The notes beneath the pieces are model-generated. The model was not told the DNA's origin. It saw nothing but the letters and a program-made list of their open reading frames with translations, and made no database searches. The position numbers and the translations under genes are program-made. Below, one piece after another: positions 2,948 through 14,679 of a DNA stretch of 14,679 nucleotides. The stretch comes from a virus (lineage: Duplodnaviria; Heunggongvirae; Uroviricota; Caudoviricetes): IMG/VR virus record IMGVR_UViG_2698536369_000025; one strand, 5' to 3'. The stretch's first letter is position 1. Every line of letters starts with the position of its first letter.

Positions 2948-3751
2948 GTGCGTATGATTGATATTCATGCCGAATTAAACGAATACAAAAAAGATTTTAT
3001 TTCTTTACGTGAATTTCTTGAGGTCGTGCTTAAGGTCGCTGGTGATGATTATGATGTTTCAGATGTCATAACTTGGATACTCAGGAGAATAAGCGGAGAA
3101 CATATCCGCCTGTACACAGTAAATGAATTTAAGCTGTTGGAATCTTTTTGTAACCCGTATCGGGATGAATTTGATAATGATGTTCTTTATAGAAATCTGA
3201 ATGCGGTTCGGAAACGTGGTTGTTTACCTGGTGAGAGGGATGAAAATGGTTTTCTGGTGTCCGGTTATTGGGAAGATCCCGAATTTGAGAACATTGGATT
3301 TATAAGGGGTGAAATTTTCGCAATTTTTCCCGATGTCCTTGACGCGTTAACGAAGCTGGAAGGCGCTAACTCTTCTGAAAATGACGAGGCACAAGGACGC
3401 GATATTGAAAAGAAAGAGTTGCGTACAGAGGATGATTTATTATCCCAAATCGCAATGCTGGAAAAAGAAAACGCAGAGTTAAGGGCAAGGATAGAGCAGT
3501 TAGAGCAAGAGCGCCCGATACACTTATATAAATACTGGGATAAAGACCCATTAGCTAAGGCTATTGAGATTAGAAACAGAGAGTGGGCCAATTACGATCC
3601 AGAAAATGATTTTGCCACCAGGGGAAATCAAGAAGCGATAACCAGGGAGCTTAAGCAGTGGGGGGCAAGTAATGCACTTGCAACGCTCATAGAGAGGACT
3701 GCCTGCCCTATTAACCGAGACAACAGCCAAAAGAACGCAAAGCCGGATTAA
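2948..3751 (+). CDS. Hypothetical protein, about 265 aa, acidic with a central coiled-coil (LLSQIAMLEKENAELRARIEQLEQER); no recognised domain
   Basis: ORF 2948..3751; the more likely start is ATG 2954, with GAGG 2943-2946 seven nt upstream. Lower GC than flanks (24/60 G+C counted over 3001-3060). Followed by a palindrome plus T-run. Function unknown. Confidence 0.7.
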   Translation: MRMIDIHAELNEYKKDFISLREFLEVVLKVAGDDYDVSDVITWILRRISGEHIRLYTVNEFKLLESFCNPYRDEFDNDVLYRNLNAVRKRGCLPGERDENGFLVSGYWEDPEFENIGFIRGEIFAIFPDVLDALTKLEGANSSENDEAQGRDIEKKELRTEDDLLSQIAMLEKENAELRARIEQLEQERPIHLYKYWDKDPLAKAIEIRNREWANYDPENDFATRGNQEAITRELKQWGASNALATLIERTACPINRDNSQKNAKPD

Positions 3752-7199: not shown

Positions 7200-7514
7200 A
7201 TGAAAAAGAAAAATTCTGGCTTTACTGCCAGCGGCCTCTCTCGGCCTGAAATCCGCCCCGGCGATATTTTCCGGGATAAATACGGCAGCACGATAACGGT
7301 AAAAACCGTCGATGATTTTCGCGTGACCTATATCCGCGAAGGTTATACGCATCCCTGCGTGTCGTCACATATGCGCTTTGAAAGGGAATTCATCCTGGTA
7401 AGTAAAGCGCCACTAGCAGAATTAAGCGACATCGACAAAATCATGAGCGTCACGGGCGCGGAACGCATCAGGACAGTACGTGAAATTATTCGTGAGCGGG
7501 GAGGTAAGAAGTGA
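7200..7514 (+). CDS. Hypothetical protein, 104 aa
   Basis: ATG 7200 four nt after the previous stop; its stop TGA 7512-7514 overlaps the GTG start of the replication gene. Confidence 0.6.
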   Translation: MKKKNSGFTASGLSRPEIRPGDIFRDKYGSTITVKTVDDFRVTYIREGYTHPCVSSHMRFEREFILVSKAPLAELSDIDKIMSVTGAERIRTVREIIRERGGKK

Positions 7515-9643
7515 AAAACGCACCGAATTTAAAATATCAGCCGAAGGATAAATTCACCGAGGTAATCATTTTTGCCGGGACGGATGCTTACGCCCATGCT
7601 CAACACTGGATTGAAAGCGAAGGACGAAAACACGGCGATAACGTGCCACCTGTTTATCTGGGGCCAAAGCAACTGGCAGACCTGGCGAATATCCGCATTA
7701 TTGACGCGAAACGCCGCTTTGCACGTGTCTATCTCGCGGGGGAGATAGAACCAATCCAGATCAATGCTATCGCTGAAAAGCTGGCGCTGGCTGGCGTACA
7801 GGAGGCGAAATTATACAAAGGTATCACCGACCGGGAGCCGGAGAACTGGCACGACTACCTGCAACGGATCCGCGAACAGGCCGAACGCGGGGAAACCATG
7901 ACGGAGGAAGTCAGGAGAGTGGGGGGATTGCCCGGAAGAACAGATCCCATGAAACCGCATATCACCGAAAAAGATGGTGCGCTCTGGTATGTCGAGCCAA
8001 TACCCAATACCAGAGCAGAGGAGCTGAATCATAAGGAAACCTGGTTGAGTGACAGGATGCGCACAGCGGGTATTGGTAATGACGGTCGGGAAGCGTATCT
8101 GATAATTGAAATGATCCCGGAAGGAACACAGAAAATTATTTACGAAGCGATGCCGCGCAATGAAATCGGTATGCCAGCAGGATGGGCGAGGTTACGTGGA
8201 CGGGGTGTTGCAATCACCACCAGCGCCCATTTACTGAATAAACTGGCGGAATACCTGCAACGTCAGGGAGATCGTACTGTGTGGGAGGTCACATCAACAG
8301 CCGGATGGCATTGTGGAGCCTATGTTATGCCAGATGGTGAGGTGATTGGTGTACCGGATCGTCCAGTGGCATTCTGTGGCGGATCTGCAGCCATCAAAGG
8401 CTATATCGTCAGGGGGACGGTACAGGAATGGAGGAATAATGTCGCCTCCCTGATGAGAGGTAATCACTCAATGATGCTTGGGGTACTGGTCGGACTGGCA
8501 GCACCCCTTAATTCTCTTGTGGGCGGAAGTTGTTTTGGTATCCACCTTTTCGCGCAGTCGTCAGCAGGGAAAACCACGACGGTGGAAGCTGCCACCAGTC
8601 TTTATGGCGATCCTGAAATGCTCAAACTTTCGTGGGATGCCACCCGGCACGGACTGACGGTGGAAGCTGCCGCACGTAATGATGGCTTTATCCCCATTGA
8701 TGAAATTGGTCAGGGAGGAAGGATTAATGACATCGCGCAATCCGCCTACAGCCTGTTTAACGGTGTGGGGAGAATTCAGGGACGAAAAGATGGCGGCAAT
8801 CGTGCAGTAATGCGCTGGAAAATAGCGGCACTAAGCACAGGGGAAGAAGATTTTGAGACCTTCCTGTTAAAAGGGGGGATCACCCCAAAAGCCGGGCAAC
8901 TGGTGCGGCTGCTAAGCGTTCCCTTTACCGATACAACGGTTTTTAACGGGTATGACGATGGTGATCAACATGCCAGAGCAATAAAGCGACTTTCATCAAA
9001 TTATTGTGGAGCTGCGGGGCGTGAGTGGGTGCGCTGGTTATCCGCTCATAAGGAACTGGCTATTAACACCACTTCCGATAAAGAAAATACCTGGCTGGGA
9101 AATCTGCCTGAAAATGCATCGTCACAGGTCAGACGTGTGGCTTCACGCTTTGCCATGCTGGATGCGGCCGGAGAACTTGCCACCGCAATTACTGGCTGGA
9201 CAGCCGAAGAATGCCGGGCAGCAACACAACGGGCTTTTGATGACTGGTTACAGGATTTCGGGCTGGAAAACCGGGAAAAATACCAGGTCATCAGCCGCGC
9301 CCGTGATTTTATTCAGCGCCATGCCCTGAGCCGTTTTCAGCCTTATACCTACGGGAAAAGCAATGGAAATATGGATAACCACTATGCATCCCGTATAAAC
9401 AACCTTGCAGGGTATCTTGTCAGTGGTAAGCGTGAGGATGGAAAACCCGAATATCACATTATCCCGTCAGTGTTTGATGGCGAAATTTTATGCGGCATAT
9501 CCAGGAACTTTGGGTGTCAGGCGCTGGAGGAAGCCGGAATGCTGGTTTGTGCAGAACCCGGTCGCTGGACATCGAAAACGGTGAAGATTAACGGAACACA
9601 GCAGCGATTTATCGTGCTGATTGACCAGGCTGAAGACGAATAA
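7511..9643 (+). CDS. Putative replication initiation protein of the element: P-loop NTPase, primase/helicase-like (DUF927-type), 710 aa
   Basis: GTG 7511 with GGGGAGG 7494-7500. Walker A HLFAQSSAGKTT and Walker B-like GFIPIDEIGQ in the central region; conserved TAGWH motif; comparable in size and position to P4 alpha-type proteins. An iteron array lies immediately downstream. Family assignment is from recalled motifs. Confidence 0.8.
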   Translation: MKNAPNLKYQPKDKFTEVIIFAGTDAYAHAQHWIESEGRKHGDNVPPVYLGPKQLADLANIRIIDAKRRFARVYLAGEIEPIQINAIAEKLALAGVQEAKLYKGITDREPENWHDYLQRIREQAERGETMTEEVRRVGGLPGRTDPMKPHITEKDGALWYVEPIPNTRAEELNHKETWLSDRMRTAGIGNDGREAYLIIEMIPEGTQKIIYEAMPRNEIGMPAGWARLRGRGVAITTSAHLLNKLAEYLQRQGDRTVWEVTSTAGWHCGAYVMPDGEVIGVPDRPVAFCGGSAAIKGYIVRGTVQEWRNNVASLMRGNHSMMLGVLVGLAAPLNSLVGGSCFGIHLFAQSSAGKTTTVEAATSLYGDPEMLKLSWDATRHGLTVEAAARNDGFIPIDEIGQGGRINDIAQSAYSLFNGVGRIQGRKDGGNRAVMRWKIAALSTGEEDFETFLLKGGITPKAGQLVRLLSVPFTDTTVFNGYDDGDQHARAIKRLSSNYCGAAGREWVRWLSAHKELAINTTSDKENTWLGNLPENASSQVRRVASRFAMLDAAGELATAITGWTAEECRAATQRAFDDWLQDFGLENREKYQVISRARDFIQRHALSRFQPYTYGKSNGNMDNHYASRINNLAGYLVSGKREDGKPEYHIIPSVFDGEILCGISRNFGCQALEEAGMLVCAEPGRWTSKTVKINGTQQRFIVLIDQAEDE

Positions 9644-9674
9644 AACCGCCTACGCTCGCAGAGGGTCAAAAATC

Positions 9675-9949
9675 GCGGGATATGCGGGATATCGGGATAT
9701 GAAAAATATATTATATAGATATCAATTACTTATGTGTCGTTATCGTATCCCGCCATATCCCGCCGTATCCCGGTATTTTGGTTTACGAATGGTTTAAAAA
9801 CAAACGAAATCACTGTATCCCGGAACGTATCCCGCAATATGTTATTGATGCATAAGCAAAAAAAAACTTACCGGGATATGGCGGGATACGAAAAATCGCA
9901 TAACATAATGAAAAATAAGTTGTTTTTTGTTTGTATCCCGATATCCCGG
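9675..9949. repeat. Iteron array / putative origin of replication: about 12 copies of CGGGATA(T/C) in direct and inverted orientation flanking an AT-rich stretch
   Basis: GCGGGATAT at 9675-9683 and 9684-9692, CGGGATAT 9693-9700; AT-rich 9701-9744; inverted copies GTATCCCGCC 9745-9754, ATATCCCGCC 9755-9764, GTATCCCGG 9765-9773, 9815-9823, GTATCCCGC 9827-9835; CCGGGATAT 9871-9879, GGCGGGATA 9880-9888; GTATCCCG 9933-9940, ATATCCCGG 9941-9949. Confidence 0.6.
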
Positions 9950-10103
9950 TAAAAAATGGTTTTTTACGCCTTATAGAGTACAGAAAAGTGATTGCTCAAA
10001 TTTTGTATTACAGGTGGCTACCGTCAGCCATCCGACCTGGAAAAGGCATAAAAGCAGATATGTCATTTTGACAATCAGACTGTTTTGATGATTACACGCC
10101 GAT

Positions 10104-11590: not shown

Positions 11591-12118
11591 ATGTTGATGA
11601 GTAAAGCTGAATACGCCAAACACAAAGGCGTAAGCCGCCAGACAGTTTACGACTGGATCGAGAAAGGCGAAGTGGTTATGTCCGGTAAAAAAATCGATGT
11701 GGAAGCGACAGAGCAGCGGAACAGCCCACCAGCACAGGGAAAAGACGCAGTTTCTGAAATGTGGCCAGAAAGAACGCTGGAAATGACGTGGGGCGAGTTC
11801 TGGAAAGCAGTTAAGGCCAGAGACGGTAAAATCCCTGCACCAGTAACGGACGATGACATACGGCAGCGTGTGCTGAATGCAGCCGGGGAATTAGGCTGGG
11901 AAGTGCAATTTCTTGATGGTGGTGCTATCTGCCTTGAGGATTGCGACGGGCAGCATTACTTTGAACAATACAATTTGCGGGGTAATGCCTGGCTGGCAAT
12001 TCGTATGTTGCGTTGTGAACTATGCTATGTTGCCAGCGATTGTCCCGATGAACAGGACACATGGAGTGAGGCAGGACTAAACGCCCTGGCTGAATGGGAA
12101 AAATCAGGCCATCAATGA
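11591..12118 (+). CDS. Putative HTH DNA-binding protein with Cys-rich C-terminal region, about 175 aa
   Basis: Preferred start ATG 11591 with GAGGTGAG 11579-11586 (the six-frame ORF starts at 11552 without an RBS). N-terminus SKAEYAKHKGVSRQTVYDWIEKGEV is a helix-turn-helix of the excisionase/MerR-like type. C-terminus has CLEDCDGQH...CELCYVASDC. TGA 12116-12118. Confidence 0.7.
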   Translation: MLMSKAEYAKHKGVSRQTVYDWIEKGEVVMSGKKIDVEATEQRNSPPAQGKDAVSEMWPERTLEMTWGEFWKAVKARDGKIPAPVTDDDIRQRVLNAAGELGWEVQFLDGGAICLEDCDGQHYFEQYNLRGNAWLAIRMLRCELCYVASDCPDEQDTWSEAGLNALAEWEKSGHQ

Positions 12119-12122
12119 CCTC

Positions 12123-12326
12123 AAAAAGTGTCAAGTTGAGCAGCTTTCCAGGTTGACACTTTACACTCTGAACGCGAAAAAGTGTCAACCTCGCTGTAAA
12201 CCCCGTCGTTACTGGCTTTGCGCCAGATTTACCACGTCAAAAAACCGAAAAATCGCGAAAAGTGTCAAGTTGCCATGCTTAGAAATGCTAAGGTTTGATA
12301 AGGTTTTTCGCGAAAAAGTGTCAACC
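12123..12326. repeat. Array of five AAAGTGTCAA boxes (two flavours: ...TGTCAAGTTG and ...TGTCAACC), one inverted; putative operator/iteron sites
   Basis: AAAAAGTGTCAAGTTG 12123-12138; inverted GGTTGACACTTT 12151-12162; GCGAAAAAGTGTCAACC 12174-12190; CGCGAAAAGTGTCAAGTTG 12254-12272; CGCGAAAAAGTGTCAACC 12309-12326. Lies between the HTH gene and a small ORF, upstream of the AT-rich cargo. Confidence 0.6.
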
Positions 12327-12356
12327 AGCCCCCTAAGATTTCCTAAGGTGTAAACC

Positions 12357-12536
12357 ATGACCATCACCGAAGCCGATATGCTGGAGATGATCCGCAGCAT
12401 TGCCGAAATCAAACAATCAGCAAGCAAAATTAACAGGTGTTCAGCGCCTGTTTCCGTTGTGCTGCAACAGGAACGCCACCAGCAGGATGATGTGAGGCCG
12501 TATCAGTGGAAGAAACTGGACAGGCTGCGACGGTGA
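12357..12536 (+). CDS. Hypothetical small protein, 59 aa (MTITEADMLEMIRSIAEIKQSASKINR...); below the size cutoff of the supplied ORF track
   Basis: ATG 12357 with AAGGTG six nt upstream; TGA 12534-12536; host-like GC; last gene before the compositional drop. Confidence 0.45.
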   Translation: MTITEADMLEMIRSIAEIKQSASKINRCSAPVSVVLQQERHQQDDVRPYQWKKLDRLRR

Positions 12537-12929
12537 GCGGAGCGTTACGGTAAGCCAACAGCCAAGCCAAACATTAAGTCTACAGGTAAGGTTGTTTTTT
12601 TGCAGGTGGCATTAATTTGTATGTTGGTTTGAGGAGCATTTTTACTGAGACTGTCTGTTCTGGTTAGTTTTTTCGTATGATATACACCTCATCAAAATTG
12701 TCCGACAGTGTGGAGCGGCGTGGCGGGGAGAGTATTGTGTGCTAGAGATTATAGTTACACTTTAATCTACGACACGATCGTAATTTTTCACTCTTCTTTT
12801 CAGATAAGCTACTACTGAGTTCACAAAAATAACATTATTTTATATCCATGCGTTATCTTTATCTGATATTAATGTGCTGTTCGGTCTTTTTTTGACTGCA
12901 AACGGCATGAATCATATTAAGGAAACCAA

Positions 12930-13091
12930 GTGAAAATATCTTTTTTTGGCGTAAATAACTTTAGGACAATATCAGGTGGCATTGGTAATAATAGAATAAT
13001 ATTTAAAGATACCAATACGCTTTTCATTTACGGGGCAAATAATGCTGGAAAATCAACTTATTTAAAAGCATATATGTTTTTTTTACAGTAA
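12930..13091 (+). CDS. N-terminal fragment (53 codons) of an OLD-family ABC-type ATPase carrying the Walker A motif; out of frame with the downstream part because of a T8 run
   Basis: GTG 12930 with AAGGAAA 12919-12925. Translation VKISFFGVNNFRTISGGIGNNRIIFKDTNTLFIYGANNAGKSTYLKAYMFFLQ* has the same opening architecture as P2 Old/GajA-type ATPases (as recalled). TAA 13089-13091 follows the T8 run 13077-13084. Confidence 0.6.
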   Translation: MKISFFGVNNFRTISGGIGNNRIIFKDTNTLFIYGANNAGKSTYLKAYMFFLQ

Positions 13092-13173: not shown

Positions 13174-14679
13174 TTGGATAAAGAAAGAATAGAAGCCAAA
13201 GCACCGAAGCAAAAGGAAAGTTATAAGAAGTATTTAAATAATGATTTTATTAGAATTAAGAAAGTATGGAGTAAAAATGGAACAAGAATAGAGGATAAAA
13301 ATTATACTTATGATTATAGTAAAGGAGATAGCGGCGAGTATGATGAAGTTGGATATGCAACAATTGGTTTGCATCAGGTCTTCCAATCTTGTTTGCCAAA
13401 ACCTGTATTTATAAAGGCTATGCCAACAGAGGAAGAAGCTAAGAAGATTCTTAATGAAATCCTAAAGATGATGGCTGAAAATACACTTAAAACATCTGAT
13501 CTTGATGAATTAAAAGCAGCTCAGAATAAAATAAAAGAATTACAAGACAAAATGTATGATCCAGAATTAATTGAAACCTATCAGAATTCAGTTAACGGAT
13601 ACTTTAACAAGATATTCGGTGATACTGCTATATGCTTCAAAGATCAAAAAGATAGGGTTGTTTGGACGGAGAATAAGCTTGGCAGAGATTTTGAAATTGA
13701 GTTTATGAAAAAAAATAGCCAAGGGGAGTTTGATGGCAATATCCCTTCAAGTTATAGCAGTGTAGGTCATGGAACTATTAGGACTGCAATATTTACATTA
13801 TTATTGATGAGAGATGTAGCAGAGCGTTTTGAAAGAAGGCTTGGACGTAAAGATTACATGGTTCTGTTTGAGGAGCCTGAGCTATTTCTCTATCCTAGAA
13901 TGGTGAAGGAACTTCGTGAATTGATTTATCAGGTGAGCACTGAAGACCTTCCATATCAAGTACTTTGTGCCTCACATTCATCTTCCATGATAGATCTTTC
14001 AAAGCCTAAATCTTCGATAATACGATTAGTTAATAATTCTACTGGAACTAAATCATATCAAATTAATGATCAATTTTTGAAGGATGCAAAAGGCATTGCT
14101 ACAAATGCTGAACTTAAACAAGAAATGTATGAAGTTTTGAGGTTCAACCCTTATATTTGTGAATCATTCTACGCTGATGAGGTACTTCTGATTGAGGGGC
14201 CAACAGAAGAAATAATATGTAGAGCTTTTTTACAAGAAACCCCATCAGATAAATCTATATTCGTATTGAACTGTGGTACGGTTAATAACATTCCTTTTTA
14301 TCAAAAAATCTTCTCAAGGTTTAATATAAAATATCATGTGATCTGTGATACAGATAAAGCAGAAATAGTTACCGTAGATCAATCTGGCAATGCAGATTTT
14401 GATTCTGGAATACAGAAAACAATTTCAGAACAGTATAGGAATGATTGTACTGCAATGAATGGTAATATAGGACTACTTCGAACTCATAACATTACATTTG
14501 AACCTGCTCATCAAGATGTTAGTATTCCTGACTTTTTGAGATTTGTTGATTGCGGTGATAGAAGCAAACCATTTAATGCAAACTTGTACTGGAAGGATAT
14601 TTTAAGGCCAAATATATCACATCAAGATATAAATAAAGTGCCTATAATTAAGTATTTGAATGAAATAATAGCACATTAA
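13174..14679 (+). CDS. OLD-family (overcoming lysogenisation defect) ATPase-Toprim nuclease-like protein, C-terminal about 500 aa; candidate anti-phage defence gene; frameshifted relative to its N-terminal Walker A fragment
   Basis: Open frame runs back to 13066 without a stop; the track start at 13174 is TTG. Motifs: GHGTIRTA (Q-loop/signature-like), VLFEEPELFLYP (Walker B), CASHSS (H-loop), then Toprim-like LLIEGPTEE and a DTD acidic motif (VICDTDK). AT-rich (15/60 and 21/60 G+C in two counted 60-nt samples, against 32/60 in the replication gene). TAA is the last codon of the window. Confidence 0.8.
   Translation: MDKERIEAKAPKQKESYKKYLNNDFIRIKKVWSKNGTRIEDKNYTYDYSKGDSGEYDEVGYATIGLHQVFQSCLPKPVFIKAMPTEEEAKKILNEILKMMAENTLKTSDLDELKAAQNKIKELQDKMYDPELIETYQNSVNGYFNKIFGDTAICFKDQKDRVVWTENKLGRDFEIEFMKKNSQGEFDGNIPSSYSSVGHGTIRTAIFTLLLMRDVAERFERRLGRKDYMVLFEEPELFLYPRMVKELRELIYQVSTEDLPYQVLCASHSSSMIDLSKPKSSIIRLVNNSTGTKSYQINDQFLKDAKGIATNAELKQEMYEVLRFNPYICESFYADEVLLIEGPTEEIICRAFLQETPSDKSIFVLNCGTVNNIPFYQKIFSRFNIKYHVICDTDKAEIVTVDQSGNADFDSGIQKTISEQYRNDCTAMNGNIGLLRTHNITFEPAHQDVSIPDFLRFVDCGDRSKPFNANLYWKDILRPNISHQDINKVPIIKYLNEIIAH

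Follow-up and report, generated by a model that had tools for sequence, protein, structure and literature searches.

What is the function of a compact array of repeats that lies between two genes of the virus record IMGVR_UViG_2698536369_000025? In this stretch of 14,679 nucleotides (the window, analysed as a whole), five exact copies of AAAGTGTCAA, hereafter called boxes, were found within positions 12125-12324, between a gene for a 175-aa protein with a helix-turn-helix (HTH) domain (HTH175; 11591..12118, plus strand) and a small open reading frame (ORF; 12357..12536, plus strand). Both flanking genes are real and conserved. An initial annotation had interpreted the boxes as a cooperative operator through which the adjacent HTH protein controls a downstream cargo. 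Our analysis leads to a different, tentative answer: the single most likely explanation, if one short of an even chance, is that the boxes form a terminase-style recognition array belonging to an Rpp-like packaging module.

The box array and its putative binding protein

The clustering of the boxes is far above chance. From base composition, 0.036 exact copies of AAAGTGTCAA are expected per window, and the Poisson probability of at least five copies in 204 bp is ~3e-19; in the remainder of the 14.7-kb window no further copy was found, even at one mismatch. Box 1 (12124..12138, core 12125-12134, plus strand; AAAAGTGTCAAGTTG) starts 6 nt past the stop codon of the HTH175 gene and is followed on its 3' side by GTTG. 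Box 2 (12150..12162, core 12153-12162) is on the minus strand, where it reads AAAGTGTCAACCT and is followed by CC; it is inverted with respect to both box 1 and box 3. Box 3 (12173..12192, core 12179-12188, plus strand, CC) is set in the extended context CGCGAAAAAGTGTCAACC and forms a perfect 13-nt inverted repeat with box 2, AGGTTGACACTTT/AAAGTGTCAACCT. The right-hand direct cluster is opened by box 4 (12258..12272, core 12259-12268, plus strand; AAAAGTGTCAAGTTG, GTTG) and continues with box 5 (12309..12328, core 12315-12324, plus strand, CC), which shares the extended context of box 3, the 18 nt of CGCGAAAAAGTGTCAACC being identical at 12173-12190 and 12309-12326. The geometry given in the initial annotation, with copies 1 and 2 as an inverted pair, copies 3-5 direct and two copies in an extended context, was confirmed throughout. 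The two 3' flavours (GTTG and CC) are likewise real, but their order, G, C, C, G, C, is not the strict alternation that had been described.

A central core (12201..12236, no strand assigned; ...CCCCGTCGTTACTGGCTTTGCGCCAGATTTACCACG, CGTTACTGGCTTTGCGCCAGATTTACC) separates the left cluster of boxes 1-3 from the right one, and its ACTGG(N)TTT part is kept in arrays of E. coli, Klebsiella/Raoultella-type hosts, Pantoea, Erwinia and Serratia. Box 4 is followed by a TAAG-N6-TAAGG motif (12278..12303, plus strand; CTTAGAAATGCTAAGG TTTGATAAGG), conserved in Raoultella L007 and Pantoea L012, which is part of a ~55-bp repeat unit made up of a box and the TAAG..TAAGG element. A second motif of this kind (12333..12348, plus strand; CTAAGATTTCCTAAGG) follows box 5, and its 3' TAAGGTG also serves the small ORF as ribosome-binding site. 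Most relatives carry six boxes, the array of the window being one 55-bp unit short. A full-text literature search for the AAAGTGTCAA box returned only unrelated papers among the matches listed.

Judged by its sequence, the reading head of HTH175 is of the terminase type. The protein consists of an N-terminal winged HTH of the terminase small subunit (TerS; Nu1-like) type in residues 1-43, a disordered linker (residues 45-57) and a compact C-terminal alpha/beta domain, an arrangement that is also seen in its AlphaFold model (mean predicted local distance difference test, pLDDT, 87.5). The best PHROG, phrog_57 'terminase small subunit' (3.7e-8), was matched by residues 10-55, while weaker PHROGs matches were to excisionase, Cox-like and MerR-like regulators. 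Comparison with the TerS of Citrobacter phage phiNP gave 17/38 identities (45% over 38 aa) including the wing, with an E value of 1e-8, and an hhalign probability of 96.6% for the domain. When a 42-aa domain query was searched against INPHARED, every match covering at least 90% of it was an annotated TerS, namely those of Serratia phage BZS1 (1e-4), phiNP (3e-4) and Pseudomonas phages Turba and Haddon; repressors aligned with the helix part only. By fold, the HTH also resembles Xis, BldC and MerR-type domains, and gpNu1 and RppC themselves belong to the same MerR-like structural class (PMC6739421).

None of the 114 HTH175 homologs was assigned to a Pfam family, and residues 1-41 were found to be almost invariant even at 35% overall identity. 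The Cys-rich C-terminus that had been pointed out earlier does not hold up as a zinc or cysteine motif, the cysteines not being conserved among the homologs. An identity with RgdR was ruled out as well, RgdR being a 99-aa protein (c1493).

Relatives were collected by a scan of genome collections and a pattern scan of IMG/VR, and loci of 12 kb were examined. About 50 loci revealed an HTH175 homolog (50-99% identity) with 3-7 boxes alongside, in E. coli, E. ruysiae, Klebsiella/Raoultella, Serratia, Pantoea, Rouxiella, Buttiauxella and Erwinia; at least eight enterobacterial genera carry both HTH175 and the array. The first box mostly lies 10-25 bp past the stop codon of the homolog, and the box is nearly absent from the remainder of each locus. 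The recognition helix, GVSRQTVYDW, is essentially invariant across these loci, as is the box core AAGTGTCAA, while the spacers drift. With gene and boxes co-inherited and both helix and core invariant, multi-site and probably cooperative binding by HTH175 is the natural reading, and it is very likely that HTH175 is the protein that binds the boxes, as the initial annotation had proposed. This binding is inferred, both partners being too invariant for a covariation test; helix/box covariation was discarded as uninformative. Loci L004 and L005 have the same recognition helix and few canonical boxes. In locus L014 (Lelliottia wanjuensis), three HTH175-like paralogs lie in tandem at ~2380, 4190 and 6000, all having the same recognition helix; no AAAGTGTCAA was found in its 12 kb, which makes this locus an exception to the pairing of gene and box.

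The spacing within the array is plastic. From the start of box 1 to that of box 2, distances of 27, 35 and 43 nt were found in close relatives and of 20-47 nt in other genera, the 8-bp steps arising via a gcttgcca unit that is present one to three times between the two boxes (L037, L051). The right cluster varies by the 55-bp unit, which occurs in two or three copies (L001, L003, L019). Homology between islands often stops right after the last box or a few nucleotides ahead of the ATG of the small ORF; such breakpoints suggest a recombination hotspot for cargo exchange.

Sister islands, the rppA/cos2 slot and cos sites

The same box was encountered in a sister lineage of phage-inducible chromosomal islands (PICIs) comprising eight IMG/VR loci (L026, L049, L054, L057, L074, L078, L081 and L086; e.g., L049 9290-9570). 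These encode a protein of 186-209 aa, with only the TerS-type HTH in common with HTH175 (hhalign 96-97%) and C-terminal domains unrelated to that of HTH175. Like the window, they combine an identical box and the same DNA-binding domain with a PICI-like backbone, including DUF927 or D5-type primases and, in one case, an OLD-family nuclease as cargo; some are embedded in prophage late genes. Helper-embedded PICIs have been described (PMC10111431). Unlike in the window, the boxes follow cosN and precede the gene: a cosQ-cosN element identical to that of phages phiNP and BZS1 comes first, followed by the boxes and the HTH gene. The element matches the stretch that directly precedes terS in phiNP and aligns with the cosQ-cosN architecture of lambda. 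The linear BZS1 record starts with it, and GenBank annotates nt 1-12, GCATTGCGCGCC, as the left cohesive end (cosL).

In phages phiNP and BZS1, GGTAACA repeats occur from bp 48 after the cohesive end. In the sister PICIs, TTGACACTTT or a TTTACAC variant is found at bp 48-57 and ~62-71, with clusters at ~137-230 before the start codon. The R3 element is positioned at bp 50-65 in lambda, 48-60 in N15 and 48-65 in PICIs, within a cosB of the order R3-I1-R2-R1 with R2 inverted (Murialdo & Feiss 2022, PMC9026076). The placement at bp 48-57 therefore implies that the AAAGTGTCAA box replaces the R elements of the helper at the R3 position in the sister PICIs, and both the lambda-like R3 spacing and a helper-type cosQ-cosN next to a satellite-specific cosB are found in this L049-type lineage. 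The sister lineage looks like an undescribed Rpp-like system for helpers of the phiNP/BZS1 type, as far as can be read from sequence; boxes at the R3 position of a BZS1-type cos were not described in the literature searched. With the cosB of BZS1 and phiNP and its gpNu1-type TerS, the HTH175 module shares the homologous DNA-binding domain and short repeats in both orientations, tens of bp apart; it differs in that the rest of TerS is absent and the boxes of the window are not placed relative to a lambda-like cosN.

A second line of evidence comes from the position of the module. The right end of EcCICFT073 reads PerC, capsid genes, cos1, rppA (144 aa), an inverted cos2, a small ORF and attR, and that of the window reads PerC, HTH175, the array and a homologous small ORF. 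The latter encodes 59 aa with a basic C-terminus, YQWKKLDRLRR, and matches phrog_7271 and phrog_1561, both of unknown function. BLASTP against the ORF that follows cos2 in EcCICFT073 (L020 3374-3655) gave an E value of 5e-5 in the N-terminal part, and both translations end in Y-x-WKK-x-x-RLRR. The homology of the small ORFs places HTH175 in the position of rppA and the array in that of cos2. In E. coli CFT073 (L020 3095-3297), the 200 bp from the rppA stop codon to the inverted cosN2 contain ATGTCCGGTT three times, twice direct and once inverted, and these copies may be R-type elements of cos2.

The Rpp proteins (RppA/B/C) with the cosB of EcCICFT073-type PICIs (Fillol-Salom 2019, PMC6739421; PMC9026076) are similar to the HTH175 module in three respects: the satellite protein, 144-175 aa long, carries a TerS-like winged HTH at its N-terminus, it fills the same slot of the PICI backbone after PerC and before the small ORF and attR or the right end, and it adjoins a non-coding recognition region distinct from that of the helper. 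The logic of a satellite-specific cosB has been demonstrated for Rpp and cos1 of EcCICFT073 (PMC6739421). Lambda-type cos with rpp and HTH175 with its boxes were mutually exclusive in the loci examined. Neither Rpp nor a lambda-type cos was found in the ~50 HTH175 loci, so that the two modules look like alternatives in one slot.

Related islands were detected in 170/5426 complete E. coli genomes (~3%) at no fewer than four integration sites, and all 170 share the array. Insertion at this many sites implies ongoing mobility, and mobility in turn implies a packaging signal. Some of these islands may be packaged from a cos of another kind: in the window, a diverged P2/186/P4-type cos was recognised at 12689..12747 (plus strand) by alignment with the real termini of 186, P2 and P4. 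Its 19-mer GGCGTGGCGGGGAGAGTAT at 12717-12735 agrees with the cohesive end of 186 in 17/19 positions, both flanks are similar, and similarity to the cos-left region of the P2 family extends ~120 bp leftward, back to ~12597. In an ungapped count, the cos of the window gave 42/51 consensus matches against a background of at most 33 and variants in sibling islands 36-46/51, with a P2-like phage as the positive control. In several other islands of E. coli and E. ruysiae, such a variant follows ~180 bp past the small ORF; loci from Serratia, Klebsiella-type hosts and Pantoea have them in other places. Judged by its cos, the island family probably uses P2-like helpers, at least in part. In the complete islands L001, L002 and L019, no cos of either type was recognisable, and the array is kept. 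The cassette of this cos together with the Old nuclease occurs in one complete E. coli genome only (EC11), and no complete E. coli genome was found to carry it in the absence of the array.

The packaging reading is preferred because of the terminase-type domain, the R3-position box in the sister PICIs, the rppA/cos2 slot and the independence of the module from cargo (see below), and further because lambda cos and Rpp were not found in HTH175 loci and mobile islands without a recognisable cos retain the array. According to it, several winged HTHs of HTH175 would bind the five to six boxes, with an inverted cluster on the left, the core, and a direct cluster on the right, and would thereby build a large nucleoprotein assembly such as TerS builds on cosB or pac. 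The module would be the counterpart, in this satellite lineage, of the packaging-specificity module that Rpp and cosB constitute in EcCICFT073-type islands; it would tag island DNA for the packaging machinery of the helper phage and may simultaneously interfere with that helper. Cleavage might take place at the diverged P2-type cos nearby, within the conserved central core, or by imprecise cutting of the headful type. The binding of the boxes by HTH175, a role of the complex in packaging and its connection to a terminase are all steps that we infer.

Regarding the core, its only occurrence in E. coli genomes outside these islands was a 20-mer in napF, attributable to chance. The idea that it is a cosN which phages also possess was dropped, since BLAST yielded only weak matches, all of them outside a packaging context (early regions of Erwinia/Pantoea Y2-like Chaseviridae, starts of Pectobacterium phages, Pseudomonas phage Dobby and IMG/VR contig L160); a degenerate core pattern run over IMG/VR was too unspecific. 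At the pac sites of P1 and SPP1, repeat clusters flank a central cleavage region. The array is similar in its left repeats, central core and right repeats over ~200 bp, and dissimilar in that cleavage in the core is not evidenced and a large terminase subunit (TerL) as partner was not identified.

Several observations weigh against a packaging function. Homology of HTH175 to TerS, to the protein of the sister PICIs and to RppA is limited to the 43-residue HTH, a fold that also serves regulators of the Xis, BldC, MerR and Cox types. No homology to RppA/B/C was detectable past the HTH (9/25 identities, E 1e-3). The C-terminal domain gave no informative fold match in PDB and BFVD and no Rpp or TerS match by sequence, and its predicted alpha/beta structure contrasts with the helical dimerisation region of RppC. 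The lambda/BZS1-type cosQ-cosN (GGGTCCTTYCC...cosN) is absent from the window and from all HTH175 loci according to a scan that finds every positive control, and inspection of the 12-mers at the expected distance from each box of the window revealed no cosN or cosQ features; the fixed R3-to-cosN spacing of lambda-like terminases can therefore not apply. The array also differs from the Rpp system in lying downstream of its gene and in having five to six copies of a 10-bp box over 200 bp where a single R3-like element is proposed. Many islands, including the window, carry the P2/186-type cos. Its distance from the boxes varies, and so does its orientation: it is 370 bp away in the window and 3.3 kb away in L013, and in L082 it is inverted and lies upstream. 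The boxes are therefore not a fixed-distance cosB of this cos. P4 uses a P2-type cos and is not known to need a satellite specificity factor for it. Finally, no phage was found to have the boxes or the central core in common with the islands.

A bolder form of the packaging reading, which we consider possible and rather doubtful, is that HTH175 and the AAAGTGTCAA array represent an undescribed family of satellite packaging-specificity modules, in which a TerS-derived head is joined to a new C-terminal fold and which operates without a lambda-type cosN. Such a module might help a distant, diverged P2-type cos to be used, or be a pac-like headful site. A satellite-encoded TerS-like HTH that reads satellite-specific sites is known; new here would be the protein architecture, the multi-box array, the lack of a lambda cos and the occurrence in islands that often have a P2-type cos.

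Alternative explanations for the array

The main rival is a transcriptional operator or roadblock. HTH175 would then bind cooperatively and control transcription at the right end, both that of the small ORF and that of the cargo, which would be reached by read-through across cos. It could do so at a weak promoter of non-consensus sequence within the array, or by halting the elongation of transcripts that come from the HTH175 gene. We regard this as a possibility, somewhat less likely than the packaging reading. The adjacency and co-inheritance of the HTH175 gene and the boxes are compatible with it; in the window, L001, L002 and EC11, HTH175, array, small ORF and cargo all point the same way, no terminator was found from the HTH175 gene to the small ORF, and the start codon of this ORF comes 33 bp past the last box. 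Each box moreover holds a perfect TTGACA hexamer, but no usable -10 partners for these were found on inspection, and a consensus scan of 12120-12350 revealed no sigma-70 promoter, with the limit that the scan is crude and weak or activator-dependent promoters could escape it. The N-terminal fold matches Xis, BldC and MerR-type binders of repeat arrays, in line with the weaker Cox-like and MerR-like PHROGs matches, and some database records name the homologs 'repressor' or 'MerR family regulator'; however, the similarity over the full length of HTH plus wing is to TerS and not to regulators, and in the sister lineage the reference point for the placement of the box is cosN, not a promoter. Distances of 27-127 bp between boxes, 8-bp steps and 55-bp duplications are unlike promoter-proximal operators, and the 8-bp steps make a rigid palindromic operator hard to reconcile with the array.

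Cargo control in particular is contradicted by the comparison of islands. As originally noted, the array lies ahead of an AT-rich nuclease gene. GC content drops from ~47% to ~30% near 12600, where the cargo begins, and the Old-type gene starts at 12930. A fixed relation of array to cargo was, however, not found. Locus L019 is cargo-less, the island ending ~400 bp past the small ORF, and keeps a six-box array; in Serratia L013, a three-gene cargo separates the HTH gene from the boxes, as does a reverse-strand cargo gene in L008 and L072. Where cargo follows the array, it is SieB, a pair of AAA and DUF4435 genes, or Old. The cargo-less island, the cargo on either side and the lack of a predicted promoter argue for a module that is independent of its cargo. 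The boxes do not appear to be a cargo switch, and a promoter-proximal cooperative operator for a defence gene does not fit the compared loci; what survives of the operator proposed in the initial annotation is multi-site, probably cooperative binding, while control of the cargo is unsupported.

Less probable is that HTH175 acts as an interference factor, i.e., a mimic of the TerS head which, like Rpp, poisons competing or helper terminases having a Nu1-like TerS, with the array serving to store, titrate or autoregulate the protein. Rpp does work by heterodimerising through its TerS-like domain (PMC6739421), a domain homologous to phage TerS is what HTH175 possesses, the module adjoins a defence hotspot, and the separate P2-type cos could package the island alone. 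A pure protein-protein inhibitor, on the other hand, needs neither an invariant recognition helix nor a perfectly conserved multi-box array; PADLOC models do not recognise HTH175, and no target phage was identified.

That the boxes are replication iterons, as a second origin or a cis replication region resembling crr, is very unlikely. P4 does have a further cis replication region, crr, well away from its ori, and in two unrelated AT-rich viral contigs (L046 1029-1255 and L032 11679-11905) the box and AAAGTGTATAA-like variants flank a very AT-rich stretch directly after a DUF3987 primase/helicase-type gene, the product of which carries a similar HTH (VTRSTLYNW) at its C-terminus. This region looks like an origin, and the HTH-box pair seems to have been re-used for different jobs. 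In the window, the iteron explanation was rejected, since a PICI-type origin is found at 9660-9955, directly after the DUF927 gene and 2.5 kb from the array, with more than 14 copies of a different iteron, GTATCCCG(C/G), in both orientations around AT-rich spacers; the array itself has a GC content of ~45-46% and no AT-rich unwinding region, and no helicase or initiator domain was found in HTH175.

Least probable of all, arm-type integrase or excisionase sites of attR, to which the excisionase-like fold matches and the location of the array towards the right end of the island would point, were rejected on distance and on the cargo inserted between array and attR (0.6 kb to the island end in L019; >2.5 kb in the window, L002 and EC11, with cargo between), distinct arm-type-like repeats lying beside attR in L019 and CFT073, and AlpA and the int-alpA RNA being present at the int end.

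The island and the significance of the module

By its gene content, the window is an integrated PICI-like phage satellite. A tRNA-Thr (CGT) gene (1369-1444) lies immediately to the left of the integrase gene and probably indicates the attL side. The P4-type integrase gene (1611-2825) is directly followed by an int-alpA RNA motif (2870-2937; Rfam, 45.5 bits), and genes for an AlpA-like HTH protein, AntA and an Icd-like protein lie between this motif and the DUF927 primase/helicase gene (7511-9643). A 267-aa ORF (2948-3751) between int and the alpA-like gene had no match in Pfam, NCBIfam or PADLOC. Its slot is occupied by a 'protein kinase' in L001 and by a different hypothetical protein in L002, and it may be a second variable hotspot. 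Genes for ProQ/FinO and PerC and two small genes are located between the origin and HTH175. The cargo, a P2 Old-type nuclease (12930-13091 and 13174-14679; PADLOC Old, 1e-50), has a broken frame in the window, with Walker A (profile positions 2-47) in a 53-aa ORF at 12930-13091 and the remainder (profile position 76 on) from 13174 in another frame; in strain EC11 the gene is intact and encodes 580 aa.

The order small ORF, cos, cargo, att and int resembles the map of P4. Shared with P4 are a P2-type cos followed by defence cargo, a P4-type integrase across att, and the Icd-like and AlpA-like genes; in contrast to P4, the island has a DUF927 primase with a PICI-style iteron origin, and its cos is diverged and absent from many sibling islands. 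Members of the sid, delta and psu families were not found in Pfam, PHROGs and NCBIfam scans covering the main ORFs of the window, several small ORFs and the part beyond the right end being unscanned, nor are any present in the annotations of EC11 and L001.

Phage satellites spread defence and virulence genes, and being chosen for packaging decides which helpers can move a satellite. For Gram-negative PICIs, the literature found describes one mechanism of packaging choice, that of Rpp with a lambda-like terminase. Even if the array proved to be regulatory, the analysis corrects the assumption that repeats beside a defence hotspot control the defence gene. The 10-bp recognition element and its 43-residue reading head could be re-used in engineered transducing particles. 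If the two do represent an undescribed module family, then, together with the L049-type proteins, one HTH-box pair would have moved between satellites that exploit different helper packaging systems. If the packaging reading is true, the Rpp logic would extend to phiNP/BZS1-type helpers via the sister lineage and, beyond this, to islands that have no lambda-type cos, a widespread family which ~3% of complete E. coli genomes carry and which occurs in many other Enterobacterales.

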